Positions 1-59,607 of a stretch of 64,000 bases of DNA are shown here, in pieces. Under the pieces are notes generated by a model, which saw only the letters and a list, made by a program, of their open reading frames with translations, searched no databases and was not told where the DNA came from. This stretch comes from Alloascoidea hylecoeti. Taxonomy: Eukaryota. The stretch covers positions 372,001 through 436,000 of the forward strand of contig BCKZ01000008.1 of assembly GCA_001600815.1 (NCBI GenBank). The letters are read 5' to 3'. Within the stretch, counting starts at the first letter, position 1, and the number at the start of each line of letters is the position of its first letter. Made by a program: the position numbers and the translations under genes.

Positions 1-991
1 CTAATTGTTGTTGTCTTGCTAGTTCAGCTTCACGTTCTTGTTGTAATCGAAGTTGCTCTGCTTCATATTGTTGTTGAGCTTGTTCGGTAGACCAAAAATC
101 CACAACGGGTGCAGGATCAGCAGCCGGTGCAGGTGAAGGAGTCACTTCACGAGAAGATTCTTCATTTTCTCGTCTTTTAGGTAAGCGTGGAGCATTACCA
201 TCATCATCCAAGAATAAATCTGGAGGATCAACAGTCAATCTTGGAATGGTGATGAGGGAAGTTAAATATCTTAAAGATTGACAATCGCTGTAAAAATTAA
301 ACAGTCTATGATGTTGAGAAGCATATCTTGTGCGTAATGGTTCCAAAGCATCATCAGAGCCTGTGACACTATGCATAGCTCGCAACATACTTGTGCAAAA
401 CTTGTAAATTCCATAACTTTCAGCAATCAATGGAGTCAAGGCGGATATTTTGCATTCACTAGCTTTTGTGTGAGTTATGCTGGCAAAGATTAACTTTTGG
501 AGGTCATCAATTGAATCTTGAAGAGACATTAAATCTAAAATAACTTCATATCCTTCATTGGGATCACTTGTAGATTTCAAACTAATGTATTCTTCATACT
601 CGAACATTCCATTAAAAGCAGGGTGAAGTTTGTGGAAATTCAACTTTTGGAGGAGGTATCTGTCGTATTCACGGATAAGCCTACCATAACCCTTAAAACC
701 ATCTCCATGAAAAACCCTTCCGAAAGACTCAATAAAACCAATATTTCTCTGGGCTTCAACCAATGCAGATGGATGGCCTTCTTGAAGAACTTTGTGAATC
801 ATGATTAGAGCCTTGAAGGCCTGGACTTCATCCCCTTGTACCGGTTGAATTTTCAGAGCATTCCATAGGGCTCTGGAGGTTTTGTGGTCCCAAGTATAAA
901 CAATGCAGTTACGGACATGTTTCCGCTTAGGGGCCGACTCTTCTTGACTGGTGGCCTTTTTGACGGCAACAGAAAGGTCTGTGCTGCTCAT
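1..991 (-). CDS. SLA2: Sla2/End4 endocytic adaptor (ANTH domain), 5' part; continues past the window start
   Basis: Not in the ORF track. Minus-strand translation from the ATG at 991 gives MSSTDLSVAVKKATSQEESAPKRKHVRNCIVYTWDHKTS...HKVLQEGHP...FEYEEYISLKSTSDPNEGYEVILDLMSLQD, which matches the Sla2 ANTH domain. Confidence 0.95.
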   Translation of the reverse strand, partial: MSSTDLSVAVKKATSQEESAPKRKHVRNCIVYTWDHKTSRALWNALKIQPVQGDEVQAFKALIMIHKVLQEGHPSALVEAQRNIGFIESFGRVFHGDGFKGYGRLIREYDRYLLQKLNFHKLHPAFNGMFEYEEYISLKSTSDPNEGYEVILDLMSLQDSIDDLQKLIFASITHTKASECKISALTPLIAESYGIYKFCTSMLRAMHSVTGSDDALEPLRTRYASQHHRLFNFYSDCQSLRYLTSLITIPRLTVDPPDLFLDDDGNAPRLPKRRENEESSREVTPSPAPAADPAPVVDFWSTEQAQQQYEAEQLRLQQEREAELARQQQL

Positions 992-1875
992 TTCTCTTAG
1001 TTTAAATTTAATAGGCTTTGGTGTCTGTTGGAGGAGTAGTAGAACCGAAGGCTATGAATCAGGCGTATGGGTGTCCCGGACGCATATGCACGTTAACCTT
1101 GGGTTAGCCTGTATATTTTAATTCTTAATGGTAAAACTACTTCCAAACAGCTTTTCGTAATGATATTCAGCTATTGGAAGTAGCTCATGGCAAGATCAAC
1201 GTTGAAGGTGAGACAAAAAAAGTGGCAAATTTTAAAGGATCATTATGCGACGATAAAATGCAACATGGTTTTGTTTTAAACTTCACTTTCTTGGTTTACA
1301 ATCCAGATCTGTTGTATTTACATGCAACTTAATCTCTTTTACAAACCTTTTTGATATAAACTCCAAATATATATAATATTACCAGCTTAATTTATTGAGT
1401 TTGACAGGAAATGGCCTTCTGATAGCGGAAAGGGCCTAGGCCTGATAAAGTACTATCCAGATCTGTTGAAATGACGTTTTTCAAAGCTTTCAATCTAGTT
1501 CTACTTTCAATTTCAAGGCAATCTATTCATGAACTTTATTTTGTCAGTAATGGTTGTACAAATGATTCATAAATTATTCAAATTTATATATATATATATT
1601 TAAAAATGGCATAAATATTCATAAGTATTTTATAACAAAAGAGAAACATGTATACTAAAAGATTTATAAATTTATAAAAAAAATAACGAAAAAAAAAAAA
1701 AAAAAAAAAATAACAAGAATATATTTAAATTTTAAACATTTCTTCTTTATAACGTACCACAATCATAACTTGACAAAGACATAATTAAGCGAAATAATAA
1801 AAATAATTTAACATAATTAACTAATCAGGAATTTATAACAAAAATAATAATAGTAGGAATAATTTTTTTTAATAA

Positions 1876-3792
1876 TTAAAGATGAAAATCTTTTAATGAT
1901 TCATCTATATCATTATCAATATTTAAATTTCCATCAATACTAGGAGTGATATTATTTATCGAATGAGCTCTGACAAAAGGAGTTTCACCTAAACCATATA
2001 AAACTCCAGGTGTTGTACCACTAAAAGTAGCTCTAACATGACTTGGAGCAGGTGATTCTAAACATGGTTGTTTCATTGAATCTTCATAATTTGGAGGAGA
2101 AAAAGCTTGAACATCTTTATAAGTTGGTGGTACTTCATCATCCCATGCTATACCTAAACCTGATCTTTCAGTTATTCTTAATTTAAATTGCATTCTTAAT
2201 ATTCTTGCAGCACCTGTTGGAATAGCAATTGTACCAGTATCTGAACTTGTAGAAACTGTGTTTTCACTGGTTCGTCTTGTAGATGAATATGATCTGACTG
2301 ATTGATTAGATGTTGAAGGTCCTAAATCACTAAATTGTCCACTAGAACTTGTTCTTTGTTTCCTAGTAGCATAACCAGGACTACCAACAAGTCCAACTTC
2401 TGCATGAATTTTTGTTTTGCTTTGTAAAACTTCTTCTGCTAATATAACTTCAATTATAAGAGCATGTTCAACTTCAATTCCAGATTCTTTATCATCAACA
2501 TCACAACAAACATTAGCAACACCAGGATGTAATTGTTGTTGATCAGGGTTTGAAGATGACGTTTGTGTATAATGTTTAATTAAACCAGATGATAAATTAA
2601 TTAATGAAATATCACCAACTACTTCAATTGATCCAGATCCTGAATAATCTGTTTTCCAACCAGTTTTAATATCTCCATGTGCTATTATTCTAGTTTCATC
2701 AATGTATATAGATTTATCAGGTTCTGTAATTACAGGTTCAAGATCAGGTACAGCAGATGTTGAAGTTGTGGTGGTAGAAGATGAAGTTAACGGTTGAATA
2801 TCTGTATCAAGAGGATGTATAAATGGACTTTGATTTGATGAAGGATATGAATATGCAGGAGAATCACTATTAGTACTACCCATGGCCATAATAGCAGATT
2901 GATTGGATTGAACAGCTGACAAACCATCAGTAGAAGCTCTTTTTTTACCACGACTACTCGTTTTCTTTTGCTTATGTTTATGGGCCCAATTGTTCTCTTC
3001 TAATGATTTTAATTTTTGTGAATGTTTAGGACAAGCATAAGATCTAATCTTAATAATTTCATCTATTCGCCATCCTAAGCGTCGTAATCGCCATCTTTTA
3101 TCATTATCAGCTATTCCATCGAATCGTAGTTCCAAAGAAAAGGAACTTTTAGGGTATACAACAACAGGTAATGAGGCAGCTGCGGTAACATTAGTAGGAG
3201 GAAAAACACGCAAACTTGATCTTTCTGGACCCTTTAAAATTGATCTAGAAACGATTAAAGGTAAGCTTGTTTTGATTGGATTTGAAGATCCAGTTGATGA
3301 ACAATAAGCTACGGCATTTAAAGAGTAATGTATGCCCGCCCCAGAAGTGCTTAAAGAGCAAGTAGGAGGTAGGGAACCTGGTAACAGATGTGAGAAGGGG
3401 TATGCATGATCACCACGAGGGAAAACCGCAGGATTGCTTAAAACGTCCCATCTCGCCAATTCTGTAATCTTCTCGCGACACTTCGCACAAGAAGCAATGG
3501 ATGAGATGGGAGGCATTAGAGGTTTTCTATATTGTATCGTTTGGGTCAGGGATAACTGTACGGCTGTTATTTCAAAATCATTCTGTTGTGAAGTAGATTC
3601 TGGGATTTGAAGTCTTAACAGCCCAGAAATGAGTGCACCAGAAGAATCAGCTGGTAAGCCGTATAACACTATAGGCGGACTTTCAATCTCGATTTTCAAC
3701 GTTAGAAGCTCGTGGCCATCTCCCTGGCCATGGGTTTGAGTGTTTTGGATCTTTGCTATTGTACTTAAACGTCGACGGCTTAACAAGGGCAT
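1876..3792 (-). CDS. LDB19: Alpha-arrestin, Rsp5 adaptor Ldb19/Art1
   Basis: Motifs IEIESPPIVLYG..SSGALISG, HAYPFSHLLPGSLPP, RVFPPT, WRLRRLGWRIDE and TGAARILRMQF..TERSGLGIAWDDEVPPTY, plus a PPNY PY-motif. The likely start is MPLL (ATG at 3792); the ORF extends to 3873. Confidence 0.9.
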   Translation of the reverse strand: MPLLSRRRLSTIAKIQNTQTHGQGDGHELLTLKIEIESPPIVLYGLPADSSGALISGLLRLQIPESTSQQNDFEITAVQLSLTQTIQYRKPLMPPISSIASCAKCREKITELARWDVLSNPAVFPRGDHAYPFSHLLPGSLPPTCSLSTSGAGIHYSLNAVAYCSSTGSSNPIKTSLPLIVSRSILKGPERSSLRVFPPTNVTAAASLPVVVYPKSSFSLELRFDGIADNDKRWRLRRLGWRIDEIIKIRSYACPKHSQKLKSLEENNWAHKHKQKKTSSRGKKRASTDGLSAVQSNQSAIMAMGSTNSDSPAYSYPSSNQSPFIHPLDTDIQPLTSSSTTTTSTSAVPDLEPVITEPDKSIYIDETRIIAHGDIKTGWKTDYSGSGSIEVVGDISLINLSSGLIKHYTQTSSSNPDQQQLHPGVANVCCDVDDKESGIEVEHALIIEVILAEEVLQSKTKIHAEVGLVGSPGYATRKQRTSSSGQFSDLGPSTSNQSVRSYSSTRRTSENTVSTSSDTGTIAIPTGAARILRMQFKLRITERSGLGIAWDDEVPPTYKDVQAFSPPNYEDSMKQPCLESPAPSHVRATFSGTTPGVLYGLGETPFVRAHSINNITPSIDGNLNIDNDIDESLKDFHL

Positions 3793-3984
3793 CTCCAGAT
3801 AAAAAACTTGGTATATTCTTTTTGCCCACCCAAATTTTAAATTTTTAGTGTACGATGCACCATGCATAAACATACCATATCACGCTTCGAGAGCACTTTT
3901 GATGCATGGGTGTCCTGCTAGCGTATAAAAGGCCAAGAATGTACGGTATCTATCACAACTACGTACTGTACCTGTACTTTGGAA

Positions 3985-5235
3985 ATGCCAGAAGAAACAG
4001 TCGTTCCGGACGCGAGAGATCCTACAAATGTCCTTCATAAAAGATTGGACTCTTGGACTTCTGCCTTGAATATTCTCTATGCCTATGTTGAGTCATTAGT
4101 TCAATTACAACAAAATGTTTCAAAATCGTTGGAGAAAGTTAAAAAGACGATCGCTGATAGTCCTGGTTTCGATTCAACAGCAGATTCTTCAAATCCTCAG
4201 ACAACAGGCGGCATCGATGGTGCTTTCAAACTACTCAGGGGCCGGACCGATGTTGCCATAAATAAATCAACTACCACTGAAAATAGTTTAAAAAAAAACA
4301 TCCTTCCGGAATTAAAGAAATTAATCATTGAAGTTGATAAACAAAGGAAAGCTCTTGTTAAATCTGTTGTTAAAATCGGTAAAGACGTTGATCTTGCACA
4401 AGCAGTAACCCAAAGAGATATTGAAAGGTTGGGATCATCAGCAGCTGGATTTGCAACCAGTACAAAAGTTGAACCAAGAACTGATCCTTATATTGCTCAT
4501 AGATTAGTTATTCATGATATTAGCGACCAAGTTGAAAAAGAAAATAATCAAATTGATGCAATTTTATTGGCTGAACAAAACTTTTTAACAATGGAAAGAC
4601 ATCTTGTTTCTACAGTCCAAACATTATTTTCTTCATTAGCTCAAGCTGAAGTTGATTATTTTTCTGCTCAAATTGAATCATTTCCTGCTATTGCTAATAG
4701 TTTTAAATCTATACCTGAAGATTATGAATGGCAAGCCTTTTGTCGTGTACATCAAGATATTTTGATTAAGCCAGATCATCCAAAAAGAAAAGCTGAAAAC
4801 ATTACTTTTAGTAATCAATCTCATGGATCAGTTGAACCTTTAATTGAAGGTGTTTTACAACGTAAAGAAGGAACTTTAATGAAAAAGTATGAAAGTAGTT
4901 ATTTTGTTGTTACAAAATGTCGTTATTTACATCAATTTCAATCACAAGATAATTCAAGGCATTATGATCCAGAAATGTCAATATATTTACCTGATGCAAA
5001 TATTGGTACACCAGGTACTCAAGAATCTGGAAAATATAAATTAAAAATTATTGCAAAAGATTCTTTAAAAACTTTAAAAAAGAAACATACATTTAGTTTT
5101 AAAGCAAGTACTTATGATGAATTAATGAAATGGTATGATGCTATAAAAGAAGCAAGTGGAATTGATCAAAATGGCGCTACTTTTGAAAGAACAAATACAG
5201 GAGCAACAACTAAAACCGCTGGTTCTGAAGCATAA
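3985..5235 (+). CDS. BAR-like plus PH domain protein, Slm1/Slm2-like
   Basis: Helical N-terminus (DPTNVLHKRLDSW...DPY...EW..F) followed by a PH domain (IEGVLQRK..MKKYESSYFVVT..YLHQF...PEMSIYL...FKA...LMKWY). ATG at 3985. Confidence 0.8.
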   Translation: MPEETVVPDARDPTNVLHKRLDSWTSALNILYAYVESLVQLQQNVSKSLEKVKKTIADSPGFDSTADSSNPQTTGGIDGAFKLLRGRTDVAINKSTTTENSLKKNILPELKKLIIEVDKQRKALVKSVVKIGKDVDLAQAVTQRDIERLGSSAAGFATSTKVEPRTDPYIAHRLVIHDISDQVEKENNQIDAILLAEQNFLTMERHLVSTVQTLFSSLAQAEVDYFSAQIESFPAIANSFKSIPEDYEWQAFCRVHQDILIKPDHPKRKAENITFSNQSHGSVEPLIEGVLQRKEGTLMKKYESSYFVVTKCRYLHQFQSQDNSRHYDPEMSIYLPDANIGTPGTQESGKYKLKIIAKDSLKTLKKKHTFSFKASTYDELMKWYDAIKEASGIDQNGATFERTNTGATTKTAGSEA

Positions 5236-5929
5236 TTAAATCAGTCTTTTTCAAGAGATTGATCTTATATTGATGAAGTTTAAACTACAACTCTTAAAGA
5301 AACTTAATTTTCATCTTCTTTCTTTACATTGATAGTATATTTCCTTTTATTTTTATCAGAAAAATTATTATTGTTGAATATTACGAAGAAAATTTACATT
5401 CATTCAATACACATAAAAGTTGTTTTTATTTATTTTATATTTCTCGTTATTAGTTTCATTTCTAGTATTTTTATAAATATATAAATTGGTACGATCTCAC
5501 CATATAATAATTAATCTTTTTTATTTTTCATTTTTCATTTTTCTTGTTAGTTTCATTTCTATTTTTGTTGATATATAATTAGTAGCGATCTGAACATCTA
5601 AATTTATATAACTTTATGACCAATATCATTATTGAAGCTTTTGTTTACTTTTTTCTAATCAGTTAATTACCAATTGTAAACATTTATAAACAAACAATGG
5701 TTAGGTTCTTTCCCCTCTTTTCAAGAAATATTAGCCAATTATTACATGACGCAATATTATTATTTACATTTGACCAATAATTACAGTCAAACAAAATTAA
5801 AAACATAAATTTAAAAAACCTGGGTTAAACTTACGCTCTTTTCGGGAACCACTACTACAACTTAGTACAAAGGCCCACCGCCCTGAGAACATGAATATGG
5901 AACACTTCCGGCACGTTAAACATTTTTTC

Positions 5930-6200
5930 TGGATGATATGGATCAAATGAACAGCAAGATATGGTCTAAAGATAGTGTGGAGAGTACAAGACGTTTGGGA
6001 TGCACGGGATCCAGAAGAGTAGATAGATGCATGATTACAGTCAGGCCATATGATAGGGCCTTTGAACTTCAATATTCTTATTACAGATAAATATAAGGAA
6101 ATTTGGGTGGGTCTGTTTGAAATTCGTAAAGATATCGATGGTCATATTAAGCTGTATAACAATACTCCATGGCTCGTTTGGCGCTAACACTAAATCCTTT
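5930..6200 (-). mobile_element. Possible degraded Ty3/gypsy integrase C-terminus (GPY/F module)
   Basis: The minus frame reads KFKGP...SSGSRASQTSCTLHTIFRPY, loosely resembling the gypsy pattern KFxGPY...LPxxxRxHPxFHVSxLRPY. It lies beside the LTR-like element at 6305. Confidence 0.35.
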
Positions 6201-6304
6201 TGTAGATTAATAGAATCTCTAGAGTTTACAGAACATTGTGCGCTATTTTAAGAAAAGTTTACGTATTAAATAACTGGATGTAAGGTCTTAGAGTGGTTCA
6301 GGAC

Positions 6305-6610
6305 TGTTATGTGGAGTATACCCTATACGGGCGCGGATAGAGAAAGATATATGCATGCCCACAGACTTTAGTACAGACTATACTCTACTACAGAGGGTGG
6401 TGAACTCATATCAATTATTTAGCGATAAGGAATCCTCCTTCCTCATTCTCTTTAAGATTCAAGATCTCTGGTTTCAACTCTACCGTCTTTCCTTAGTTAG
6501 TATGGCCCTTGTCTTCGTCACCTTATTCTTAAGCTTTATCTTCGCGCTTTGCAGTCTAGATATCTAAGAAGAACACCATCACCAGAAGACACCTACTTTG
6601 TATCCACATT
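6305..6610. mobile_element. Solo-LTR-like (or MITE-like) element of about 305 bp with short terminal inverted repeats
   Basis: Starts TGTTATGTGGA and ends TATCCACAT (ATGTGGA/TCCACAT inverted). Both ends and the internal block AGTCTAGATATCT (6553-6565) recur in the same order at 51316-51380. Confidence 0.55.
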
Positions 6611-7688
6611 CGATAGTTACAATGCAACGTTGTTTCACTCTTTCTTTTTTTTGACCTTAAATATAATTTCCAATTAAAGCTTCTAACTACTCCGTAAAAA
6701 CTGTGTGTCTAATACCTCAGAGAAAAAACTTTACAACTTCATATTTAAATCTTTTTGATCACAATACAGAATACTTCGGTTACGGCCATTGTAGGTACCT
6801 TTTTAACTAGTGGTTTTTTGATCTTATCCTTTTATTTCTTATTTGTATTTAAAGGCATATCTCTTATATTAGAAATTCCTCTATCCTTAGGATTAGTGCT
6901 TGTCTGGAGAATAAGAAGTGTGGAGATGAATGATATACCTGTACATAGAAAATGGTAATGTTATCAGAAGAATTTTAAGTTAAATAAGAACAAAGAAGAG
7001 TATGTAAACACCTATCTTAAATTTGCTTAAAAGTGATTTCCTCGAAAGTCTTCTGTTAACTCATGGAGATTCGGCACACGTAGATTAAAATATATTCTCA
7101 ACCCTAAAAGGTTTGGATTCGTTACGTCACAACATCCTGATTTATTTATCTGTTATCTACCTGTTATCCTAGCATTCAGTCCCAGTTTTCACTACTTTTC
7201 CCAATCGATTCCGACTTAACTTCGACTATGTGACTTATAACTTTTCTATGTATGTATACTGTTACATTTTCTTCCCTATTCTTCTCTTAATCTTTTTATT
7301 TTTGGCTCTATTATATTTTCTAACTTTTAAAACTATAGTCTATAGTACTCTTTATATCCTCTCAAGGAAAATAAATTTCCCTGAGAAGCTTGGCTCTAGC
7401 AATCTATTTCATTCTGGTATCCGGTTCTGAGGACTTAAACATTTAAAAATATGCATACAACAATATAAATGTGCCATTGAAGTTGTAAAGTTATGATTAA
7501 TTAAGTTTGTGGACTTCTAATCCAAGATAAGATCAATACACTTTTACTAACTATTAATTATAAGTTATGGCATTTGAATTTATACCGATAATCATTTTTG
7601 GCTATAAATTATTTAATATAAAGTACGGTTAAAACCCGCTCTTTGTCGTTGCTTTTACCTTTTGTTCTTAGAAATTTTAACAATTAAG

Positions 7689-8937
7689 ATGAAACTTCAA
7701 TTCAATTTCCCAATATTTAATTTAATATCAATTGCATCTTTGGGATTGGTTCTAGCTATTGTTGCAGAAGTGGTTAATAATGTTCTGGGTGCACATCAGC
7801 TTGAATTCAGACTTGAACTTAGATCAGAAGATATTATACATGTAACTACAACTGCAAATGAATCAAGAGCGCTAGCTGGTTCGAATTCTGGAGGTGTTTA
7901 TGGGAAACTTACTCTTTCTCAGGGTAATGTATAGTATGGTATTTACATTGAAGTTGGAAATCCTCCTCAAAAGATTACCGTTAATGTCAATACTGGCTCC
8001 TCTGATTTATGGGTTCCTTCTAAAGGAGCCGGAATTGCTAACAACTCATGTGCAGGTGCTTTTGATAAATCGTTATCCAGTACTTATGGACATATTTCAG
8101 ATCATTTTTGTCTAATTTATAATGATAACGCTCTTGTACAAGGCGAGTGGTTTAAGGATGATGTATCCATTACTGGACAAACAGTTAAAGGGTTTACCAT
8201 GGGATTATCAAAAAATCACACTTATAAATATGGGATTTTTGGTCTTGGGTTTGATGGTATTTTTGCTGGCCTGGGAAGTTATGAAATTGGTGGCTCCGTC
8301 AACTATCCACATGCTTTAGTTAACTTTGGAATTACAAAATCTAGTGCTTTTTCTCTTTTTTTTTTGAACTCTACTAATTCATCCACAGGGAATATTATCT
8401 TTGGGGGAGTTATATACTGGTAATTTATACACTCTCCCGTTAACAATACTTCCACCACCATTTTTGACTACCCTGATAGACAGTTTGAGTCTTGAAGGGA
8501 AAACTACTCCAGTTAAAAAATCCTTCATTTTAGATTCTGCTTCTGGTTATACTTATCTACCACTTCCTGCTTTGTTGCCAATATTTGAATCTCTTGGAAT
8601 AAACCACACTCCTGGGACGTTTTTGAAAACCGATTGCACTTTAGCAAATGATCAAAGAGTTATTGAATTTAAACTGTGCTACTATCAATATCAAAATTTC
8701 GGACCTCCTGTGGATTTAATTTTGAATGGACTTCAGTCATATGATGTAAGCAAGGGAGTATATACTCTAGGTGATTCCTTTTTAAGATCAGTCTATCTTG
8801 TTTATGATGTACACAACCTACAGGTTTTAATTGCTCAGTCTAATCATTTAGCAGTTGCAACTGATTCCAATATTCGGGTTATTCCTTCAGGAAAAGGTGT
8901 AATTCCTGGAGCCATGAAATGTCCCTCTAGTTTTTAA
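7689..8937 (+). pseudogene. Secreted aspartic protease (SAP/yapsin-like, peptidase A1) pseudogene
   Basis: Signal peptide from the ATG at 7689, then an in-frame TAG at 7932-7934. The same frame continues YGIYIEVGNPPQKITVNVNTGSSDLWV (catalytic D replaced by N), GIFGLGF, AFSLFFLNS..GNIIFGGV. After a frameshift near 8410 it reads YTGNLYTLP..ILDSASGYTYLP..LGDSFLRSVYLVYD. Confidence 0.9.
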
Positions 8938-9153
8938 TTTAATTTAAAATATACCGGTATATACCGGTAACATTTAACTATGTATAAAAGCGAAAAAAAA
9001 TAAAAATATATAGCCATTATTAAATTAATTTTGAATTTTCTTTCATATCATTAGCAATTATAAATCTATAAGATTATTTCTGTCATTAATATTTTACCAG
9101 TCGGTCATAGTACAATTAATATTTTTTTATCTATTTACTTTCTTTAATTGATT

Positions 9154-11183
9154 TTACTCTTCCTCTTCTTCTTCTCCTTCTTCATCATAACCTTCCTTGA
9201 ATGTGAAATTTTCCATTGAAATATGAGCTTCAGTGAAAATATCATTGTATTCAAGTTTAGTTTCTAATTTTTCTGCAAGTAAATGAATAGAATTAATTGA
9301 TTTAAAATCGATTAATTCAATACCTAATTCAATATCTGTATAAGGTTCATCGGCAACTAACATTGCAGTCTCATCTTTGTCTTCCCTTTTATCTTCGGCT
9401 TCAGCTTTATCTTTGGCCCCATCTTTGTCTTCAACTTTTTCAGAATCATCTACCTTTTCAATTTCAGCCACGATATTTGTACTAGAAGCTTCAACATTGG
9501 CGTCATTAGTTTCATTTGGAATATTATCTGAAACTGCTGAGAGGACAGTATTTGGTTCGGTTTTACTATCAGTGCTTGGGTGATAATCAGTAGGAATTGG
9601 TTCTAAGTTTGAAGTAATTGTATCTGTAGATATATCAGTAGTAACCGAGCCTTCAGTAGGTTCATTTAGAGTCGCACTTATTGGCAGAGTAGGTACACAA
9701 TCTATCATTTCTTCATCAATATGTTCTTGCGAATTGGCTTCATAATTAACCGGTACCTCCTCTATATCTGTTGACATATCATTTTCTGCATTTTCTTCAC
9801 CTTCTTCATTTTCTTCGTTTTCTTTAACTGGAGGCATATATGGTTCGGCCAATTTAACTTTCAATCTATCATCCTGTTTTTCTAACAAAATACCAATCAC
9901 ATTTTGCATAACTGGTTGGACTAATTCTTCATTAAAATGTAATCTATTAAAAACAATTACATTACCAGGTTCTAGATCCTTAAAATTCAATTTTTTTAAA
10001 GCATTCAAATCATAAGATTCTAAAGTAGGATCAAAATCAACCCAATCTTCATCATCTTCTTCTAGAACAACTTGAACTTCTCTATCACCACAAATGATTG
10101 CCCATGGTGCATCTGGTAAATTAAAATCATCATAATTATTACCACATTCTACCTGTTCAAATACAAGTTTTTTCAACCATTTCCCATCATCATCATCTGC
10201 AATTACAGGTAAGTTTGATTCATCAATCGGTATAGGACGAGGACCATAAAAAATAGATAATTGATTTTGACGTTGACTATGATGATTTTGAAGATGTTTC
10301 TTCTTGCGAAGATTTCGTTTTTGGGATTTGGTTAAAGGAGCTTTTACTACTTTTTCACTTTCTGAACCTGAATCTGAATCTGAATCTGAATCTGAATCTG
10401 AATCTGAATCTGAATCCGTATCAGAGTCAATGTTAGTTGAAACCGAAGTAGAGTGGGGCCTATTGTTCAAAGAACGAGAATCTGGTGAAGATTCGGAGGA
10501 GCTTGCTCGCCGTTTTCTCGCACCATCTGAATTATCTTGAGGTTCAACGGACCTTGAAACATCATTTGTGACTGTTAATTGACTTGAGCTTTCTATATCC
10601 ATTGCATCTGTTGAATCTCTAGTACCAGAAACTCCTCTCCCCAATACAATTCTCTCTGGTAAAGGAATACGAAGACCAGTTAAAGTCTCCGAGATACTCT
10701 GTGATGAGTTGGGGGGTTCACGGAGAGCACTAGTACCAGACCTTGAGCTAACTACCGAACCAGCGACACTATATTCTGACACATCAACCGATGCTATGAG
10801 ATCTGAAGGAATGAAAGAAGATGAAGCTTCCTTCTCAACTGGCACAAGCCTAAAAGTAATCGAAGGTTAGGTTCACATTATAAACAAGCTTCATGAGGAA
10901 AATAAAATAGGGGAGTTTCAAAATTTTCTTACACAACAGTATCACCTTCTTCAACAACATCATCAAACTGGTCATCATCTAATAGTTTAAACCTATCTAA
11001 TTGAGCTTCATAAGTTTTAGAACTATCAACTCCTGGAACTTTACTAAAGGAATTGATGAAAAATAAAACAACCTCAGAAACACTTTTAGACGAAATCTCT
11101 GGTTTCAAAGGTCTTCTGGCTCTGACCACTTCTCTATACTTGAGATTGGGGCCCTTGGTCTTTATGATAAGATTGATCTTCAT
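9154..11183 (-). CDS. Coilin/Mug174-like protein, two exons (11183-10933 and 10849-9154)
   Basis: An 83-nt intron joins the two track ORFs in frame (..EEGDTVV-LVPVEKE..). Architecture: N-terminal ubiquitin-like beta-grasp candidate, Ser/Asp-rich disordered region, basic KSQKRNLRKKK motif, and a Tudor-like segment DLEPGNVIVFNRLHFNEELVQPVMQNVIGILL with an acidic insertion. The gene model is well supported; the coilin call is inferred. Confidence 0.65.
10361..10415. repeat. (TCTGAA)n hexamer repeat encoding (DS)n
   Basis: Directly visible tandem repeat inside the coding sequence. Confidence 0.95.
10850..10932 (-). other. Spliceosomal intron (83 nt)
   Basis: On the minus strand it reads GTAAGA ... 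AACCTAAC (branch point) ... TTTTAG. Removing it deletes the exon-1 TAA and restores the reading frame. Confidence 0.85.
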
Positions 11184-11374
11184 TGACACGGTACCGGTGA
11201 AGCAGAATGGAGGTCGAAGAAGGAGAAAGAGGAGGAAGAGTAACCAGCTCTGTTGTGGATTGATCCTGCGATGCCTGTATCAGCAGATATTACCCGGCCT
11301 TTCATCCTCAGATATTAGGTTTTGTGTACGACCTTCTCCAATTTATATTCATATTTATATTCTTTTCTATTAAA
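11184..11374. promoter_or_regulatory. Compact 191-bp bidirectional promoter with a Reb1-type TTACCCG site
   Basis: Divergent ATGs at 11183 (-) and 11375 (+); TTACCCG at 11290-11296. Confidence 0.5.
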
Positions 11375-14300
11375 ATGCCACCTCGGATTGTGAATAAATA
11401 TGGTTCTCGAAGAGGTGTACATAATGATAGTACAATTCAACCCGAATGGACGCGTCATACACCTTCCTCCAGCCTAAAATACCCAAAGACAACTAAAACA
11501 TTTAGCTCTGCTCTTGATGAATATTCAAAAAGATTAAAAAAGCAAGAATATGAACTACAGAAGGAAATCTGTGAAAAATATGGTATTACACATAGTGATA
11601 TGTTAAATCAATTAAAAGAATCTTTAATATCAAACACGGGTTTTACAAAGGAAAGCACTCCAATGACTAATTTTTCAGACAGTCTTGAAACCATTCCTGT
11701 TGTACAACCCTCAGAAACTCTAGATTCCATTAGTGATCCTTCAACTTTTTTTCATGAGGAATTGGATACAAATATTACAGAAAAATTAGATAATTTAAGC
11801 AACAAATTAAAAAATACAAAGATCCAAGTTATTAAAGAATCAATTCCTAAAACTACGAGAATTACGCGTTCACATTCAAATTCACGTGTATTACCCCCTG
11901 CTGAGGATAATATAACGACAGAGAAATTTACCAAAAATATAACAAAAAAGGATAGTTTAATAAATAATGAAAAAACACCTAATATACTGGAAATGGAAAT
12001 TGATAAAATTCCTGTTACACTTCATGGTGAATTTAAATTATTTGTTAATATGCTTGATCTTGAAAATCCAATTGATAAACATATTAAGGATTATATCATC
12101 GATTGTACTTTAAATCATTTAACGCATGCTGATTTTTGTAAAAAGAATAAAATTAATGCAAAAGATTTTCAAAAAAGACTTTCGGTTCTAATAAGTTCAA
12201 ATGATTTCAAAAATTCATACGATAAATTACTGGAAATCAATACTACTGAAAATGAAAATGAATCAATAATTGTTAATAATTTCGAAAACGAAAAAAATAT
12301 AAAACCATTTAAAGACGAAGATGCTTTTAAGTTGCTTGATCTTAGTAGGGTTGTAGATCGTGCCGTATATTCATTTCTGTCTGGAGAATCACATAAGTTA
12401 AGTGAAGCTGCTGAGCGTTACGAAGTGATCACACGATCAATGATCAATACAATCTCACGGTTAAGGAAGAGTGATCAATTTGAATTGTTTTACCAAGAAA
12501 TATTGAAAAGAAAACATATAAAAAAAAGCAATAGAAGAAAGCCTCGGAATCAAAAATCTAAGAATTTAGAGCTTGAGGTATTGAATACAGAATCCCAAAC
12601 AGAAAAAGAAAAAGAAAAAACAGAAAAAGAAAAAGAAAAAACAGAAAAGGAAAAGGAAATTTCCACTATCGAAAATACAATATCTACATCTAATCATGAT
12701 GGGAGCACCAACTTAGAAACTACAACTAAAACCAGCTCTAGGAGAAATCTTCGGAATCGAAAATCTAAAAATTTAGAGCTTGAGGTATTGAATACAGAAT
12801 CCCAAACAGAAGAAACAGAAAAGGAAAAGGAAAAGGAAAAGGAAAAGGAAAAGGAAAAGGAAAAGGAAAAGACGATTTCCACTATCGAAGATACAATATC
12901 TACGTCTGATCATAGCTTAGAAATTACAAATAAAACCAGTTCTAGAAGAAATCTTCGGAATCGAAGATCTAAGAATTTAGAGCTTGAGGTAATGGATACA
13001 GAATTCCAAAAAGAAAAAGAAATTTCTACTTTCGAAGATACAATATCCACGTCTGATCATGAGAGTAGCACCAACTTAGAAACTACGAGTGGAATCAGCT
13101 CTAGATTGAAAAGAAAATGTAGCACCAAAACGCAGACTGAACTCTTTAACCGAAGGGATTACGAGAAAGAAGATGCAATAACCAAATATATAATTGATAA
13201 TATCGTTGAAGATAAAAAATGGAAAAGTCTAACTCCAACGATTTTTAATATGCTTGATTTTAATAATAAGGTAGATTGTTGTCTAAAATCATACTTAATG
13301 TTCGAGTTCGAATCGCAGAAGAGTGCAGCTGAGAGTTTTGAATTAACTCGTGCTTTATTGCAAGATAGAATTAAAAAGCTGGAAAAAAACAAACAGTTTG
13401 TTTTGTATTATTCTGAATTCTCCAAGCGTCGTCGAGGGGCCAGAAATGCCATTGAAGAGCCTCTTATTGATTCACTAGATTTAAATAATGGTATTGATAA
13501 TGATATATTATCAGCTTTCTCAATTAAATATTCAGCCCAAACAATTAATACATCAAAAAGAATTGACGTGAGACAAATTTCCGAAAGGGTAAAAATGCTC
13601 AGAAAGAATGACAAATTTGATGAACTGATGGTTAAATTTATGCATTTAAAATTATGGGCCCCAATTGAACTTGTAAGCAAACCTATAAACGAAATAAACG
13701 AAATCGTATTTGTGAAACCTAACCAAGATCTATCCGAATCCGAAAATTTACCTCTTTTTTATCAACCTATTCTGGTTTATGAATCTAGAAGAACACGGTC
13801 CAGTTTATGCTACAAGCCAAGTGGCTCCCCGCAAATCGAAAAAAGATCAAAGGAAAGTGAGATCAGTAACAGGAGAAAAAGGCGACATATTGAAAAACAT
13901 GATGATACCCAGGTGATTATTGCAAATACTGAAGCCACAGATGTCTCTGGATCAAATTTGGAGTCAAACAATAAAGATTATTTAACGGCTTCTCATTCAA
14001 ATAACAATAACTTATCAGAAACCACAGTTTCACAAAATACTGATACATCACCTCAGTCACCTCTTTCATCTCTTCCAGAATCACCTTCTTCTTATCCAAA
14101 TTCATCATCTCCGTATAATGAATTACAAGAATTAACTCCTATTTCATCACCATCTAGACAACCTCTTTCTACAATAGTACAGGAATATATTCGTACACCT
14201 TCAAATAATACATCGATGTGGGAAGAAAAAGCAATTGTTGATTTTTTCAAACTTCGAGCCGAATTTGGAGTGGAAGAGCCAATTAAACTTTCATTAATAC

Positions 14301-14734
14301 AAACATTTGCTGATTTATTACTAAAATCTCGTCTTTGGTATTATAATAATATGTTAGTAGATGATATAAATATCCAATCAGTTTCAGAAGGTTGGACCAA
14401 AAACTTTGTTTCAAGAAACAATTTTTTATCTGATCTTCAAGAATCAGATAAAATCGATGAAGATGATACAAATGTATCGAATGGCTTAGCAAATGACCTA
14501 GCAAATGTTTTTTATGCCCGTGAAGAATACAATCATATCAATAAAATGGCACCTTTTTTGCGAGGTGATAATGACTCAACGATATTAGGTTTATTCTTAT
14601 TACAAAAGTTAATAATATTATATTTAACTTTATTGAAGATTAAGGCAGAGAATTGTGATAAGGATGTATCATTTTGTATGAATTTAATTAACATGTTAGA
14701 TGGTGATCATAAAAAATTACTTCAATTTGTATAA
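11375..14734 (+). CDS. Multi-HTH protein with psq-type repeats and a C-terminal CENP-B/Tc5-type HTH; probably derived from a pogo/Fot1 transposase
   Basis: Four related units begin LDLENPIDKHIKDY, LDLSRVVDRAVYSF, LDFNNKVDCCLKSY and LDLNNGIDNDILSAF, with HTH-like cores such as LSEAAERYEVITRSMINTI and QKSAAESFELTRALLQDRI. The C-terminus contains EEKAIVDFF...GVEEP..SLIQTFADLLL...VSEGWTKNFVSRN. ATG at 11375. Confidence 0.65.
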   Translation: MPPRIVNKYGSRRGVHNDSTIQPEWTRHTPSSSLKYPKTTKTFSSALDEYSKRLKKQEYELQKEICEKYGITHSDMLNQLKESLISNTGFTKESTPMTNFSDSLETIPVVQPSETLDSISDPSTFFHEELDTNITEKLDNLSNKLKNTKIQVIKESIPKTTRITRSHSNSRVLPPAEDNITTEKFTKNITKKDSLINNEKTPNILEMEIDKIPVTLHGEFKLFVNMLDLENPIDKHIKDYIIDCTLNHLTHADFCKKNKINAKDFQKRLSVLISSNDFKNSYDKLLEINTTENENESIIVNNFENEKNIKPFKDEDAFKLLDLSRVVDRAVYSFLSGESHKLSEAAERYEVITRSMINTISRLRKSDQFELFYQEILKRKHIKKSNRRKPRNQKSKNLELEVLNTESQTEKEKEKTEKEKEKTEKEKEISTIENTISTSNHDGSTNLETTTKTSSRRNLRNRKSKNLELEVLNTESQTEETEKEKEKEKEKEKEKEKEKTISTIEDTISTSDHSLEITNKTSSRRNLRNRRSKNLELEVMDTEFQKEKEISTFEDTISTSDHESSTNLETTSGISSRLKRKCSTKTQTELFNRRDYEKEDAITKYIIDNIVEDKKWKSLTPTIFNMLDFNNKVDCCLKSYLMFEFESQKSAAESFELTRALLQDRIKKLEKNKQFVLYYSEFSKRRRGARNAIEEPLIDSLDLNNGIDNDILSAFSIKYSAQTINTSKRIDVRQISERVKMLRKNDKFDELMVKFMHLKLWAPIELVSKPINEINEIVFVKPNQDLSESENLPLFYQPILVYESRRTRSSLCYKPSGSPQIEKRSKESEISNRRKRRHIEKHDDTQVIIANTEATDVSGSNLESNNKDYLTASHSNNNNLSETTVSQNTDTSPQSPLSSLPESPSSYPNSSSPYNELQELTPISSPSRQPLSTIVQEYIRTPSNNTSMWEEKAIVDFFKLRAEFGVEEPIKLSLIQTFADLLLKSRLWYYNNMLVDDINIQSVSEGWTKNFVSRNNFLSDLQESDKIDEDDTNVSNGLANDLANVFYAREEYNHINKMAPFLRGDNDSTILGLFLLQKLIILYLTLLKIKAENCDKDVSFCMNLINMLDGDHKKLLQFV
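12530..13105 (+). repeat. Three imperfect in-frame tandem units of about 200 bp containing (GAAAAG)n runs
   Basis: The peptide RRNLRNRKSKNLELEVLNTESQ..EKEKE..ISTIEDTISTSDH repeats three times with high DNA identity. Confidence 0.9.
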
Positions 14735-43270: not shown

Positions 43271-44551
43271 CTAAGCCAATAAAGAGGTCAAATAGAATAA
43301 CGCAATTAGGAAAACGTTCACTGAAGTAGCTGATCCACTACTCGATTGAGTTGAAACTGTTCCATTTGAAGATTGAGAAATAGTCGAGTTACTTTCAGTA
43401 TCTCTTTTCACAACAGAGACAGTAGAAGTCGCAACCGTTGTAGCAAGAGTAGAACTGGATGCAGATGCAGTTTTAGTAGCAGTTATCACACTCACCCAAC
43501 TAATAGGATCACCACAAGGACCTAAATAAACATAGTATACCATATGTCCAATTGGATCACCAGCTGCATTGGTTGTATTTGAGACAACCAAAGATTCTTC
43601 ATAACCATTACAATCTGTTGAGCTTGGATCACAAACAGCAATATTATCAGCAGTTGGATAATCCCCTATTTTAGCAATATAAATTTCCAAACCACCATAG
43701 GCATAATAATCACTAGTCGTTTCAGCAATTGTATCATTCCTATGTTTATTTCTAATATGTCCTGCAATTGGGAATTCCCCAGATTTTAAGTTTTTAAACG
43801 ATTGTTTAATATTAGACACTTTATCGAAAAAATCAATCAATTTTTTATTTCCAAATACTGGACAACCCCATTCAACAATTAATGGATCATAACCAAGTAA
43901 TTTTAAATCAATTTCAACCAATTGTGCCATTACAGCGCCTAAAGAATGTCCTAAAACAACTAATTGATAATCAGGATGTTCTTTCTCCATTTTATTAATT
44001 GTTTTAATTGCAAAATCATAATCTTCTTTATAAGTTTCATAAAACCCATCAGAAATAAAACAATCATCACATGTTAATTTTGCAGCATTTGGATTTGAAT
44101 TACTAAGAGGAGTATATTTGACACTATCATTATAAGTATCCAATAAGAAATTATTTGTTGTTAAACTTCCAACAAATATAAAAACATTTTGTTTCTTTTT
44201 ATGATCATAAATACCAGCCATAAAAGTTGTATTATCAATACTATCATTAGAGACATCAGGCCATGAACCAGCAACAAAAGTTAAACCAGCATATTCCGAA
44301 TTATTGCAAAAGCTTGCTGTACAAGTATCATCAATTACTAAAGGAGTATCGTCTGCTTCATTGGGATTTCTAGTTACATGACAAGTACCTATACCATATA
44401 ACTCAGCATAATGGTAAAGAGTTGGAAGAATTGGGTTTGTTTCTACTCCATGAATTTCCTTGTTTAAATCTGATAATAAAAATGAATTCGCTTTTGCATA
44501 ATTTGTTGCATAAAGCAATGTAAATATTGATATCAATTTTGAAAAAATCAT
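43271..44551 (-). CDS. Class-3 lipase, secreted, predicted GPI-anchored (copy 1)
   Basis: Signal peptide, GFY motif, GHSLG nucleophile elbow, HRND (Asp), GHMVYY (His), Ser/Thr stalk and hydrophobic C-terminus. Confidence 0.85.
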   Translation of the reverse strand: MIFSKLISIFTLLYATNYAKANSFLLSDLNKEIHGVETNPILPTLYHYAELYGIGTCHVTRNPNEADDTPLVIDDTCTASFCNNSEYAGLTFVAGSWPDVSNDSIDNTTFMAGIYDHKKKQNVFIFVGSLTTNNFLLDTYNDSVKYTPLSNSNPNAAKLTCDDCFISDGFYETYKEDYDFAIKTINKMEKEHPDYQLVVLGHSLGAVMAQLVEIDLKLLGYDPLIVEWGCPVFGNKKLIDFFDKVSNIKQSFKNLKSGEFPIAGHIRNKHRNDTIAETTSDYYAYGGLEIYIAKIGDYPTADNIAVCDPSSTDCNGYEESLVVSNTTNAAGDPIGHMVYYVYLGPCGDPISWVSVITATKTASASSSTLATTVATSTVSVVKRDTESNSTISQSSNGTVSTQSSSGSATSVNVFLIALFYLTSLLA

Positions 44552-46704: not shown

Positions 46705-46923
46705 TTATTTCATATATGTGAAATCAGTTTCATTTTCTTCATTTGATCTTGAACAAGTACATTGGTTAGTTGGTCTTTTTCCACAAGAGCATGTAGTTGA
46801 TGGTTTGGCATTTTCAACTGGAGCTTTAGAGCAATTGCAGTCCATAGCAGCTCTTTCACCACAAGAGCATCGGGAAGTTTGAGCACAAATGCAGTTATCA
46901 CTTTGTCCGTTACAGCAAGCCAT
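46705..46923 (-). CDS. CRD2: Crd2-like metallothionein (72 aa, Cys-rich)
   Basis: The pattern CICAQTSRCSCG..A..CNCSKA.VEN...CSCGKR....CTC...ETDFT matches Candida albicans Crd2. Confidence 0.88.
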   Translation of the reverse strand: MACCNGQSDNCICAQTSRCSCGERAAMDCNCSKAPVENAKPSTTCSCGKRPTNQCTCSRSNEENETDFTYMK

Positions 46924-47013
46924 TTTGATAGTAGTAATATTAATAGATGTTAATTAATTGAGAGAAGATATAATTGATGAAGATATTTTTTGAGAATAGT
47001 GGGATATTTAATG

Positions 47014-47373: not shown

Positions 47374-48741
47374 CTAAATTAAAAGCGATATCAAAGAAAA
47401 TAAAGCAGCTATAATGCTATTATTCTTATAAATATAACCATCATTTTTTTGTGTAACCGCAGCAGCACCGGTTTCACTAGGAAATCCAGAACTTGTTCCA
47501 CGACCACTATTAACATTAGTGTTAGAAGTTCTGCCCGTAACTACAGTTCTTTGTGTTGAAACAAACCCAGTGCGCGTTAGTGTAGTGTTTCCAGTTATGG
47601 ATGAATTCGAGGTTGAACTAGTTTTTGGCATGATAGCCGCCGCCTCTGGAATCGTCTTTAAGAATTCCATTAAATCTCCAGATGGATCTAAATAGACAAA
47701 ATAAACCATATGTTCAATTGGATTACCGGCTACATTAGTTGTATTAGCTACAATTAATGCATTGTAATATCCTCCACAATCACTTGATGTTGGATCACAA
47801 ATTGCAATTTCTTTAGCTGAAGGATAATCTCCATGTTTAGCGATATAAACTTCAACTCCTCCATGAGAATATGTTTCATTAAATAAAACAATAGCAAAAT
47901 CATTTTTATGATGATATCTAATGTTTCCGGTCATTGATGATAATGGTCCAAAACTGTCAAAAGTTTCTTCTACTTTTGTAACCTCATTCAAATATTTCAC
48001 AAAATTCTTATCACCAAGTGGAGGAGATCCCCAATTCACAATTAAAGGATTATAACCAAGTAAGTATAACTCAAGACCTGCATATTGCGCTGTTACAGCT
48101 CCCAAGGAATGTCCAATAACTACCAATTTATAATCTGGATGTTTTTCAATCATTTTCTTAATTGTTTTAAAACTAAATTCATAATTGGCTTCCCAGGTTA
48201 TATAGAACCCACTGTGGATTTTACAATCAGAACAAGTATTAGTAGTATCATTTTTTGAAATTGATGGTAAAATACTATTTTTCTTTTTTATTAATGGTTC
48301 ATATGTTAATGAAGCATTTGTATAATCTAATTTGAAATTATTAGATGTCTCACTACCAACAAAAACAAAAACATTTTCTTTTCTTTTATGATCATAAATT
48401 CCCATCATGTAAGTACTATTATCTTCACTACCATTGACAATATTTGGCCATTGGGCATCAGCAAAAGATAATTGATCAAATTCTGAATCATGGAAATAGC
48501 CTGCTGTGCAATTATTAGGGATAAGTATATCTGTATCAGCTAGTGTATGTGAATTGCTTGTTATGTAACAAGTTGAAATACCGAAGAGCTCAGCATAATG
48601 GTAAAAGTCATCTAAAACAGGATTGCTTTCATTGTCTTGCGACTTTTTATCAAATTTCGTTAAGAGGTAAGAATCATCAGCCAAACATGAGATGATTGAG
48701 CAAAAGGAAATTGTTACCAGCTTTAATTTAGAAACTAACAT
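47374..48741 (-). CDS. Class-3 lipase, secreted, predicted GPI-anchored (copy 2)
   Basis: Signal peptide, IHSGFY, GHSLG, HKND, EHMVYF, Ser/Thr stalk and hydrophobic tail. Confidence 0.85.
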   Translation of the reverse strand: MLVSKLKLVTISFCSIISCLADDSYLLTKFDKKSQDNESNPVLDDFYHYAELFGISTCYITSNSHTLADTDILIPNNCTAGYFHDSEFDQLSFADAQWPNIVNGSEDNSTYMMGIYDHKRKENVFVFVGSETSNNFKLDYTNASLTYEPLIKKKNSILPSISKNDTTNTCSDCKIHSGFYITWEANYEFSFKTIKKMIEKHPDYKLVVIGHSLGAVTAQYAGLELYLLGYNPLIVNWGSPPLGDKNFVKYLNEVTKVEETFDSFGPLSSMTGNIRYHHKNDFAIVLFNETYSHGGVEVYIAKHGDYPSAKEIAICDPTSSDCGGYYNALIVANTTNVAGNPIEHMVYFVYLDPSGDLMEFLKTIPEAAAIMPKTSSTSNSSITGNTTLTRTGFVSTQRTVVTGRTSNTNVNSGRGTSSGFPSETGAAAVTQKNDGYIYKNNSIIAALFSLISLLI

Positions 48742-49917: not shown

Positions 49918-51189
49918 TTAAATTAGCAGGGCACATATAGCGAAAAATCCCAATAAAAATCCATTGGATTTTGTTGATATACCTTCAGATTTACCCGAAC
50001 TAGTTGACTTTGGACTAGAAGATTCTGAACTAGATGTAGTAGATTCCGAGGAAGCAGATGAAGGAGAAGTACTTGAGCTTGTGGTTGGTGAGCTTGAACT
50101 GTCTGCTGGAGACCAGGCAATAGTTGATCCTTGATTTACGTACGGTGCTGTTCCACAAGGAACAATATCAACATAATATAATCTATGAGGATTAGAAGTA
50201 CCACCGGGAACAGTGGTATTAGCTGGAACCAATGAATCTGGGTATCCACCACAAGTTCCATCAATATTATAGTCAGGATCACAAATTGCAATATCAGCTG
50301 GAGTTGGATAATCTCCTAATTTTGCAATCCAAACTTCAACTCCACCATGATAGTAAACATTATCTAAAAATTTAGGCACCCGATCAGGTTTATGTTCATT
50401 TCTTATATTTCCAGTTAATGGAAATTTCCCTGATTCAAAAGTTTCAAAAGTATCTTCGGCATGTGTTATGTTATTTAAATAACTAACAAAGGTTTTACTA
50501 CCAATTTGAGGTGCACCGAAAGAAAGAACTAATGGAGAAATTCCCAATAACTGTAATTCAATTGCAGCCAATTGAACAGCAGAACCACCTAAAGAATGAC
50601 CTAAAAGCACAGTTTTATAATCAGGAAATTCTTCTCCCATTTTCTTAACATTATCTAACGTGAAATCGAAATCAGCTTTCCATGTTTCATAAAACCCACG
50701 GTGAACAACACAATCTTCACAAACGTGTTCAGTAGTTGTTAAATTCTTTTCAATAACAAGCGGTGTATATGGAGCTGTTGTTATATCTAAATCCATTTTT
50801 TGATTAATTAGAGTAGTAGTTCCAACCAAAATCACAAAACTTTCTTTTCTATTATGATCGTAGAGACTCATCATAAAGGTAGCATTACTAGTATTATCTG
50901 GCCAGAATCCATCAACAAATTCTAAATGTTGAAATCTTGCATCATCACAGTATCCTTGATCACACTCTTTAACAATTGTTATATTTGTGTCGGATGGTTG
51001 ATTTGGATGTGCTTTGAGGAAACAAGTTGCTATACCATAAACACCAGCATAATAAAAGAATTCATCAAGGACTGGATTTGTTACATCGTTTCCTGAGCCT
51101 TCATTTAATTTCGATAATACAAATGAATCATCAGCAATACAAGATGCTATGATTGAAAGTAGAAACAATACCCCACTGTTTAACAACAT
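49918..51189 (-). CDS. Class-3 lipase, secreted, predicted GPI-anchored (copy 3)
   Basis: Signal peptide, VHRGFY, GHSLGG, SFGAPQIG, HKPDRVP, PHRLYY, Ser/Thr stalk and hydrophobic tail. Confidence 0.88.
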   Translation of the reverse strand: MLLNSGVLFLLSIIASCIADDSFVLSKLNEGSGNDVTNPVLDEFFYYAGVYGIATCFLKAHPNQPSDTNITIVKECDQGYCDDARFQHLEFVDGFWPDNTSNATFMMSLYDHNRKESFVILVGTTTLINQKMDLDITTAPYTPLVIEKNLTTTEHVCEDCVVHRGFYETWKADFDFTLDNVKKMGEEFPDYKTVLLGHSLGGSAVQLAAIELQLLGISPLVLSFGAPQIGSKTFVSYLNNITHAEDTFETFESGKFPLTGNIRNEHKPDRVPKFLDNVYYHGGVEVWIAKLGDYPTPADIAICDPDYNIDGTCGGYPDSLVPANTTVPGGTSNPHRLYYVDIVPCGTAPYVNQGSTIAWSPADSSSSPTTSSSTSPSSASSESTTSSSESSSPKSTSSGKSEGISTKSNGFLLGFFAICALLI

Positions 51190-51315
51190 GATCTATTTTA
51201 GTTGTTGAATAAATCTGTAATTATTATATTATTGAAAATGAGGAAATAAAACAAAAAGAAATATAAATTAGGGAAAATGAGACGCCATGAATGGATCTAT
51301 ATGCGTATGCATGTC

Positions 51316-51380
51316 TGTTATGTGGAGTACCGTACTAGGCAGAGAGTCTAGATATCTGGATCCAACAATATCCACATATA
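51316..51380. mobile_element. Short internally deleted relative of the 6305-6610 element
   Basis: TGTTATGTGGAGTA (51316-51329), AGTCTAGATATCT (51345-51357) and TATCCACAT (51369-51377) are shared with 6305-6610 in the same order. Confidence 0.55.
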
Positions 51381-56096: not shown

Positions 56097-56288
56097 ATGC
56101 AATTCAAATCTGTTATCGCCGTCCTTGCTACCGTCTCAATCGTTGCCGCACACAATGGTTCTAATGAAACAGACCACAAGAATGCTACCAATGGTACTAC
56201 CTCTCACTCATCTGGTGCTTCCAGCAGCGTTTTACCAGCTGGTATTGCCGGTGCTTTCGTTGCCGGTGCCGTTGCCTTACTTATCTAA
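56097..56288 (+). CDS. Tiny secreted or GPI-type glycoprotein, Hor7/Ddr2-like (63 aa)
   Basis: Signal peptide MQFKSVIAVLATVSIVAA, four N-x-S/T sequons, hydrophobic tail GAFVAGAVALLI, codon usage typical of highly expressed genes, and TATAAA at about 56024. Confidence 0.8.
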   Translation: MQFKSVIAVLATVSIVAAHNGSNETDHKNATNGTTSHSSGASSSVLPAGIAGAFVAGAVALLI

Positions 56289-59500: not shown

Positions 59501-59548
59501 CCATATATTAACAGATCGTATCCAAATGCAGCCAGTCACAGCACACGG

Positions 59549-59607
59549 TCGTTTACTCGTTTAATACAGTACGCAGTCGTTTATTCGTTTACTACCGTCT
59601 TTATAAA
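59549..59607 (+). promoter_or_regulatory. ERG2 promoter: four TCGTTTA Upc2/Ecm22-type elements and a TATA box
   Basis: TCGTTTA at 59549, 59557, 59577 and 59585; TATAAA at about 59602. Confidence 0.75.

Follow-up and report, generated by a model that had tools for sequence, protein, structure and literature searches.

A two-exon gene for a candidate, highly diverged coilin/Mug174-like protein in a genome of probable budding-yeast type

A candidate coilin

A split gene on the minus strand of a 64-kb stretch of DNA (hereafter ‘the window’, meaning the whole stretch that was analysed) encodes a very acidic protein that is most likely a highly diverged nuclear-body scaffold of the coilin/Mug174 kind, and we hold its true kinship with that family to be moderately probable. 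Because every alignment-based membership test failed, the protein is put forward as a candidate coilin and is not filed as a proven member. The sole positive link that is specific to coilin is a protein-language-model match of the C-terminal block to the Tudor_Coilin family. The layout of the protein, this C-terminal match and a ubiquitin-like signal from the first exon all point in the same direction, towards coilin, and together they lend partial support to the reading. An earlier note on this DNA had proposed a coilin/Mug174-like identity; the layout and the Tudor_Coilin neighbours of the C-terminal block speak for that proposal, whereas Pfam matches and sequence relatives do not bear it out.

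Published statements are given here as they stand in excerpts of the cited papers. At its N-terminus coilin has a self-associating, ubiquitin-like domain, and at its C-terminus an atypical Tudor-like one that includes two large loops (PMC9556525, PMC3539977), and the plan of the whole protein runs from an ordered domain of ~100 aa through a disordered centre with nuclear localisation signals (NLSs) to the Tudor-like domain and a disordered C-terminus (PMC3539977, PMC9556525). The reported coilin orthologue of Schizosaccharomyces pombe is Mug174 (PMC11347179, PMC11369484), which was first linked to coilin through its predicted structure (PMC11347179, PMC9666668) and whose similarity to human coilin is described as ‘weak homology’ confined to both ends (PMC11347179). 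According to the excerpted text, BLAST finds no Mug174/coilin homologue in Saccharomyces cerevisiae, and the authors who studied Mug174 remark that it would be compelling to find a budding-yeast counterpart of coilin (PMC11347179, PMC11369484). These excerpts agree with what the earlier note had stated as background, both on the ubiquitin-like N-terminus and Tudor-like C-terminus of coilin (PMC9556525, PMC3539977) and on Mug174 as the fungal orthologue, with S. cerevisiae having no recognised coilin (PMC11347179, PMC11369484). Our literature search found no published coilin in Saccharomycotina, most of the extra matches being apparently to other words such as ‘coiling’, as was verified for one paper.

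Gene structure and the predicted intron

The two-exon, intron-containing gene is real, its structure having been computed from the sequence. Exon 1 (11183..10933, minus strand; 251 nt) comprises the ATG, 83 further codons and 2 nt. It is followed by an intron of 83 nt (10932..10850, minus strand) with a GTAAGA donor and a CTAAC branch site (10870..10866); it ends in a TAG acceptor, whose final base is 17 nt downstream of the branch A. Exon 2 (10849..9154, minus strand) completes the split codon and continues for 564 codons to a TAA stop (9154-9156). With 10932..10850 removed, the codon at the junction is split after its second base, and the exons join in frame with no internal stop to give a product of 648 aa. 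The coordinates and anatomy of the 83-nt intron at 10850-10932, claimed from the outset to join an 84-codon exon to a long open reading frame (ORF), are thereby confirmed, and every motif quoted at that stage is present in the translated sequence. The long ORF itself also stands; its length, given as 563 aa, does not, since 564 codons follow the split codon.

An alternative gene model would have no intron, so that the long ORF, then of 482 aa, would have its start at the ATG at 10602, and the upstream ORF of 84 codons would be separate or meaningless. It is at odds with the way in which the two frames meet, as the upstream ORF, with its ATG at 11183, terminates precisely at the donor, in a TAA overlapping the GTAAGA hexamer, and the exon-2 frame is open and ATG-free across the 88 codons upstream of the first ATG at 10602. 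At the stop frequency of the 64-kb window (0.070 per codon), runs of 82-84 open codons such as the upstream extension of exon 2 and the 84-codon ORF have a P of ~0.002 each. Codon usage was scored as a log-ratio, with 12 Pfam-supported genes from the window as the training set; training chunks gave +0.42 ± 0.20 when read in frame and −0.82 ± 0.33 when read off frame. Exon 1 scored +0.23 in the proposed frame versus −0.61 and −1.20 in the others, the 5′ extension of exon 2 scored +0.27 versus −0.72 and −0.87, and the intron was negative in all three frames; coding-like usage is therefore found in just the frames that the split gene uses, and the 83 nt between them look non-coding, which again argues against an intronless gene.

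The splice signals bear on the choice from both sides. There are 74 GT..AG pairs that would keep the frame open, five of which use GTAAGA, the sole consensus-like donor there, and the proposed pair alone among the 74 has this donor together with a CTAAC branch and, as its acceptor, the AG that comes first past the branch; a looser intron pattern has ~70 matches in the window and no discriminating power. In favour of the intronless model, the GTAAGA donor and the ACCTAAC context of the branch depart from the signals of S. cerevisiae, which are a GTATGT donor and a TACTAAC branch, and no second verified intron was found in the window with which the splice signals could be compared. The same model gains from the RNA data, as no RNA run covering 9000-11400 was found and no read spanning the junction was seen in three metatranscriptome runs from the same study as this DNA, in which the only matches were of 33-39 nt, of low complexity and located at 9779-9826. 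The predicted intron is accepted because the open frames are improbable, the codon usage is frame-specific and the combination of splice signals is unique; we regard this computational intron model as almost certainly correct and an intronless gene as very improbable.

Genomic setting

The window is intron-poor and AT-rich (31% GC), and its single-ORF fungal genes include LDB19, a Slm-type BAR/PH gene, Utp13, ERG2 and a P450. From the intron-poor large ORFs, the 31% GC and the LDB19 and Utp13 families, the genome appears to be of budding-yeast type. Among the 6393 codons of the 12 Pfam-supported genes in the window, CTG is rare, with 20 occurrences against 343 of TTA, and the gene for the 648 aa protein has a single CTG, within the region that encodes its acidic insert. 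Neither tRNA genes nor Rfam families were found at threshold across the 64 kb.

The divergent neighbour (11375-14734, plus strand) begins 191 bp from the exon-1 ATG and encodes 1119 aa with no Pfam family, including internal Lys/Glu/Thr-rich repeats and repeated RRNLRNR..KNLELEV units. On the other side, an aspartyl-protease-like gene (7690-8934, plus strand) appears to be disrupted: two ORFs that share a frame have an in-frame TAG (7932-7934) between them, positions 2-159 and 163-314 of the Pfam Asp model fall in different frames, and the frame changes near a T-run at about 8354-8366. Its first catalytic triplet is N-T-G, where pepsin-like enzymes have D-T-G, and the gene could be a pseudogene or the product of an assembly error. 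Further along the window there are three Lipase_3 (class-3 lipase) paralogues in tandem on the minus strand (43271-44551, 47374-48741 and 49918-51189), with a DUF7871 ORF (46708-46953) between two of them. A stretch of ~8.4 kb (51200-59600) has no stop-to-stop frame of at least 100 codons, in unusual contrast to the gene density of the rest of the window; it holds nine ORFs of at least 70 codons, none of the nine with a Pfam match, and its GC content is unremarkable (0.28-0.35).

Architecture of the protein

The spliced protein has a pI of 4.3, with Asp and Glu making up 22% of its residues and Ser 11%, and the three-part layout first ascribed to it, namely a compact N-terminus, a Ser/Asp-rich disordered centre and a split beta-rich C-terminal block, proved to be right. 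The compact N-terminal domain is of ~90 residues and spans the intron, most of it being encoded by exon 1 (10933..11183, minus strand); the composition and hydropathy profile shows residues 1-90 to be hydrophobic-rich, with a basic start and an acidic end. The centre is Ser/Thr-rich over residues 91-180 and strongly hydrophilic over residues 181-270, where Ser/Thr reaches up to 43% and two basic patches are found. An Asp-Ser repeat of residues 225-248 (10357..10428, minus strand) is encoded by a 6-nt tandem repeat, which Tandem Repeats Finder places at 10361-10416 with a period of 6 and 9.3 copies. The basic motif KSQKRNLRKKK (residues 258-268; 10297..10329, minus strand) is a candidate nuclear localisation signal, and the second basic patch is RKRR (10501-10521, minus strand).

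Residues 300-420 are again hydrophobic-rich (331-420 in the profile) and take in beta-rich block 1 (residues 363-421; 9838..10014, minus strand), a candidate for the opening part of a Tudor-like domain. In the composition profile, which is acidic over residues 421-590, this block is followed by an acidic, Thr/Asn/Glu-rich insert of ~165 residues (422-586; 9343..9837, minus strand), and then by block 2 (residues 587-613; 9262..9342, minus strand). Block 2 contains a strand-like segment, ELIDFKSINSIHLL; it may provide the closing strand(s) of the split domain and would then pack against block 1. Residues 601-630 are moderately hydrophobic, and an acidic tail runs on after block 2 to 9157 (minus strand). 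An RG box is absent from the protein. In its ordered N-terminus, disordered NLS-bearing centre, looped C-terminal domain and disordered tail the protein follows the coilin plan, which is a permissive criterion.

Structure prediction by AlphaFold2 was run on single sequences without an alignment, because the homologue searches gave nothing to align, and returned a pLDDT of 48 for exon 1 and of 34 for the C-terminal 370 residues, both models being too poor to establish a fold. In the latter, low-confidence model (pLDDT 34) the three longest strands all lie in block 1, and the acidic insert is without secondary structure.

Profile and sequence searches for relatives

A coilin/Mug174 family match at the level of profiles did not hold up, as no Pfam coilin model fits exon 1 or exon 2. 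Exon 1 (84 aa), queried without the few domain residues encoded past the intron, matched no Pfam family at E ≤ 10 and hence not Coilin_N, which we take to be the Pfam N-terminal coilin model; HMMER filters hide Pfam matches above about E 0.1-0.25. The Tudor_Coilin model (PF23086) matched neither the whole of exon 2 nor any of five sub-fragments at Pfam E ≤ 10, and a model of 105 positions that is split by an insert of ~165 residues would score as two weak halves. The matches that exon 2 and its sub-fragments did give (DUF6910, YhcG_C and TPR_PSMD3_N) were weak, sub-threshold and unrelated.

Searches by sequence gave a similar outcome. No relatives were found by a word-indexed search of 5.8 billion proteins or by two metagenome scans, and a sequence search of the PDB with five queries found no coilin. 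The single phmmer match of exon-2 residues 195-350 among 1.84 billion representative proteins was rejected as a relative; it is a 3764 aa protein of near-identical repeats that scored over 7 stretches, and is put down to chance inflated by the repeats. Sequence relatives that might bridge to known coilins were thus found by none of the word-indexed, phmmer and PDB searches.

These results suit a lineage-restricted, fast-evolving acidic protein of the nucleus or nucleolus that is unrelated to coilin and resembles it in general layout and composition. The lack of a relative in the word-indexed, phmmer and metagenome searches and of a Pfam family counts in favour of such a protein, as does the commonness of a plan in which a disordered centre separates an ordered domain from a second, small one. 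The evidence that tells against it comes from comparison by protein language model.

Protein-language-model neighbours

When exon-2 residues 195-350 were compared with the 7.7 million clusters of the ESM Atlas, the first-ranked neighbour was an Ascomycota cluster (score 0.87, with 184 of 256 features shared) in which Tudor_Coilin is annotated on 31% of the members, under half of them. Third in rank came a cluster from arthropods (0.84), 60% of whose members carry Tudor_Coilin. Nine of the ten best family-bearing matches to the C-terminal query belong to the same family or clan as the top one. In the calibration of the method, at least 170 shared features were seen in nine of ten same-family first matches, versus one or two of ten chance or distant ones. 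Atlas scores under 0.9 are to be read as a lead only, and the Tudor_Coilin neighbours of the C-terminal block fall below that level; the recognition value of the block is likewise low, at 1946 against a mark of 2300, and both figures suit an acidic protein without ties to coilin. Such a protein would, however, hardly be placed by its layout alone so that Tudor_Coilin, a small family among the 7.7 million clusters, is found on two of its three nearest, and the same coilin family had been named independently in the earlier reading from sequence only. Since one of the two clusters is from arthropods, the signal is not due to a composition common to fungi. The C-terminal result is given real weight because of the count of shared features, the small size of the family and the naming of that same family beforehand. 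We accordingly retain an unrelated acidic protein as a substantial though lesser possibility, and continue with coilin as the preferred identity.

For exon 1, every named Atlas neighbour is a small N-terminal domain of the ubiquitin-like type (CIDE-N, TDP-43_N, Par3 N-terminal, DWNN and Ubiquitin_GT-1), with scores of 0.80-0.85, and the best match is an unnamed fungal cluster of 83 aa (0.91). Coilin_N is absent from among these neighbours.

The ubiquitin-like character of exon 1 in the Atlas also suits a third identity, that of a cofactor of the cap trimethylase Tgs1 of the Eas1/Swm2 kind, which would be kin to coilin and Mug174 through its N-terminal domain only and have an unrelated C-terminal part. 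As excerpted, the literature describes S. pombe Eas1 (SPAC18G6.13) as sharing only its amino-terminal region with Mug174 and as working with Tgs1 (PMC13473130), and S. cerevisiae Swm2 as binding the N-terminus of Tgs1 (PMC4466884). The present protein could share with both the type of small N-terminal domain and a role alongside the cap trimethylase. The comparison, made by description, also brings out differences, in that the likeness of Eas1 to Mug174 is limited to the amino-terminal region (PMC13473130) and Swm2 is described, in the excerpted text, as having no known domains (PMC4466884), whereas here a second ordered region bears a coilin-Tudor signal. That sole coilin-specific signal sits in the C-terminal block and not at the N-terminus, and a length of 648 aa with two ordered regions is closer to Mug174 and coilin than to a protein that has the N-terminal domain alone; we consider a cofactor of this kind improbable.

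Comparison with known coilins

The likeness to metazoan and plant coilins extends to the three-part plan, the N-terminal domain of ~90 aa that is first basic and then acidic, the basic NLS-like motifs in a Ser-rich centre, and the beta-rich C-terminal block, which has a long loop, is followed by a disordered tail and has Atlas neighbours that carry Tudor_Coilin. In a line-up with human coilin made by eye, residues of like charge appear to coincide with R8, R36 and D79, a correspondence that we assume rather than derive from an alignment. These three residues of human coilin drive its multimerisation and its binding to Nopp140, according to the excerpted source (PMC9556525). The present protein differs from the metazoan and plant coilins in lying below detection by the Pfam coilin models, in its very acidic overall charge and in having no RG box; plant coilin is likewise described, in the excerpt available, as being without an RG box (PMC3539977). 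Its loop is also far longer than those described for human coilin.

With Mug174 the protein shares a fungal origin and an arrangement of N-terminal domain, disordered centre and separate C-terminal domain (PMC11347179, PMC9666668, as excerpted). The N-terminal domain of Mug174 is reported to be required for its localisation and for its interaction with Tgs1 (PMC11347179, PMC13473130), and the ordered parts of Mug174 are described as two distal subdomains between which, in the excerpted accounts, contact is not predicted (PMC11347179, PMC9666668). What sets the present protein apart from Mug174, as far as description allows them to be compared, is the acidic insert of ~165 residues before the last strand-like segment.

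Proposed mechanism

We give an even chance to the fuller proposal that this budding-yeast-type lineage keeps a true coilin orthologue, which has acquired an acidic loop of ~165 residues in its Tudor-like domain and has drifted beyond detection by hidden Markov models. By analogy with Mug174 and coilin, the N-terminal domain of ~90 residues would be ubiquitin-like, would self-associate and would bind the cap trimethylase Tgs1. Nuclear import would be served by the Ser/Asp-rich centre, which carries two basic patches and could also promote multivalent, charge-driven condensation. The beta-rich C-terminal block would form an atypical Tudor-like domain that docks snRNPs of the Sm class, with the last strand(s) of the domain placed past the long acidic loop.

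Implications

Should the protein prove not to be a coilin, it would be another fast-evolving acidic yeast protein to which no role is assigned. If it is a coilin, it adds a very divergent new member to a known kind of protein, and is a natural variant in which the Tudor-like domain carries a very long loop. Annotation restricted to ORFs would in that case cut off its N-terminal self-association domain. The gene would also provide a handle for tracing when yeasts lost or disguised the scaffold. If the reading is true, a coilin-based, Cajal-body-like scaffold persisted in a budding-yeast lineage, and the reported lack of coilin in S. cerevisiae would stem from extreme divergence or a later loss, and not from an ancient absence.
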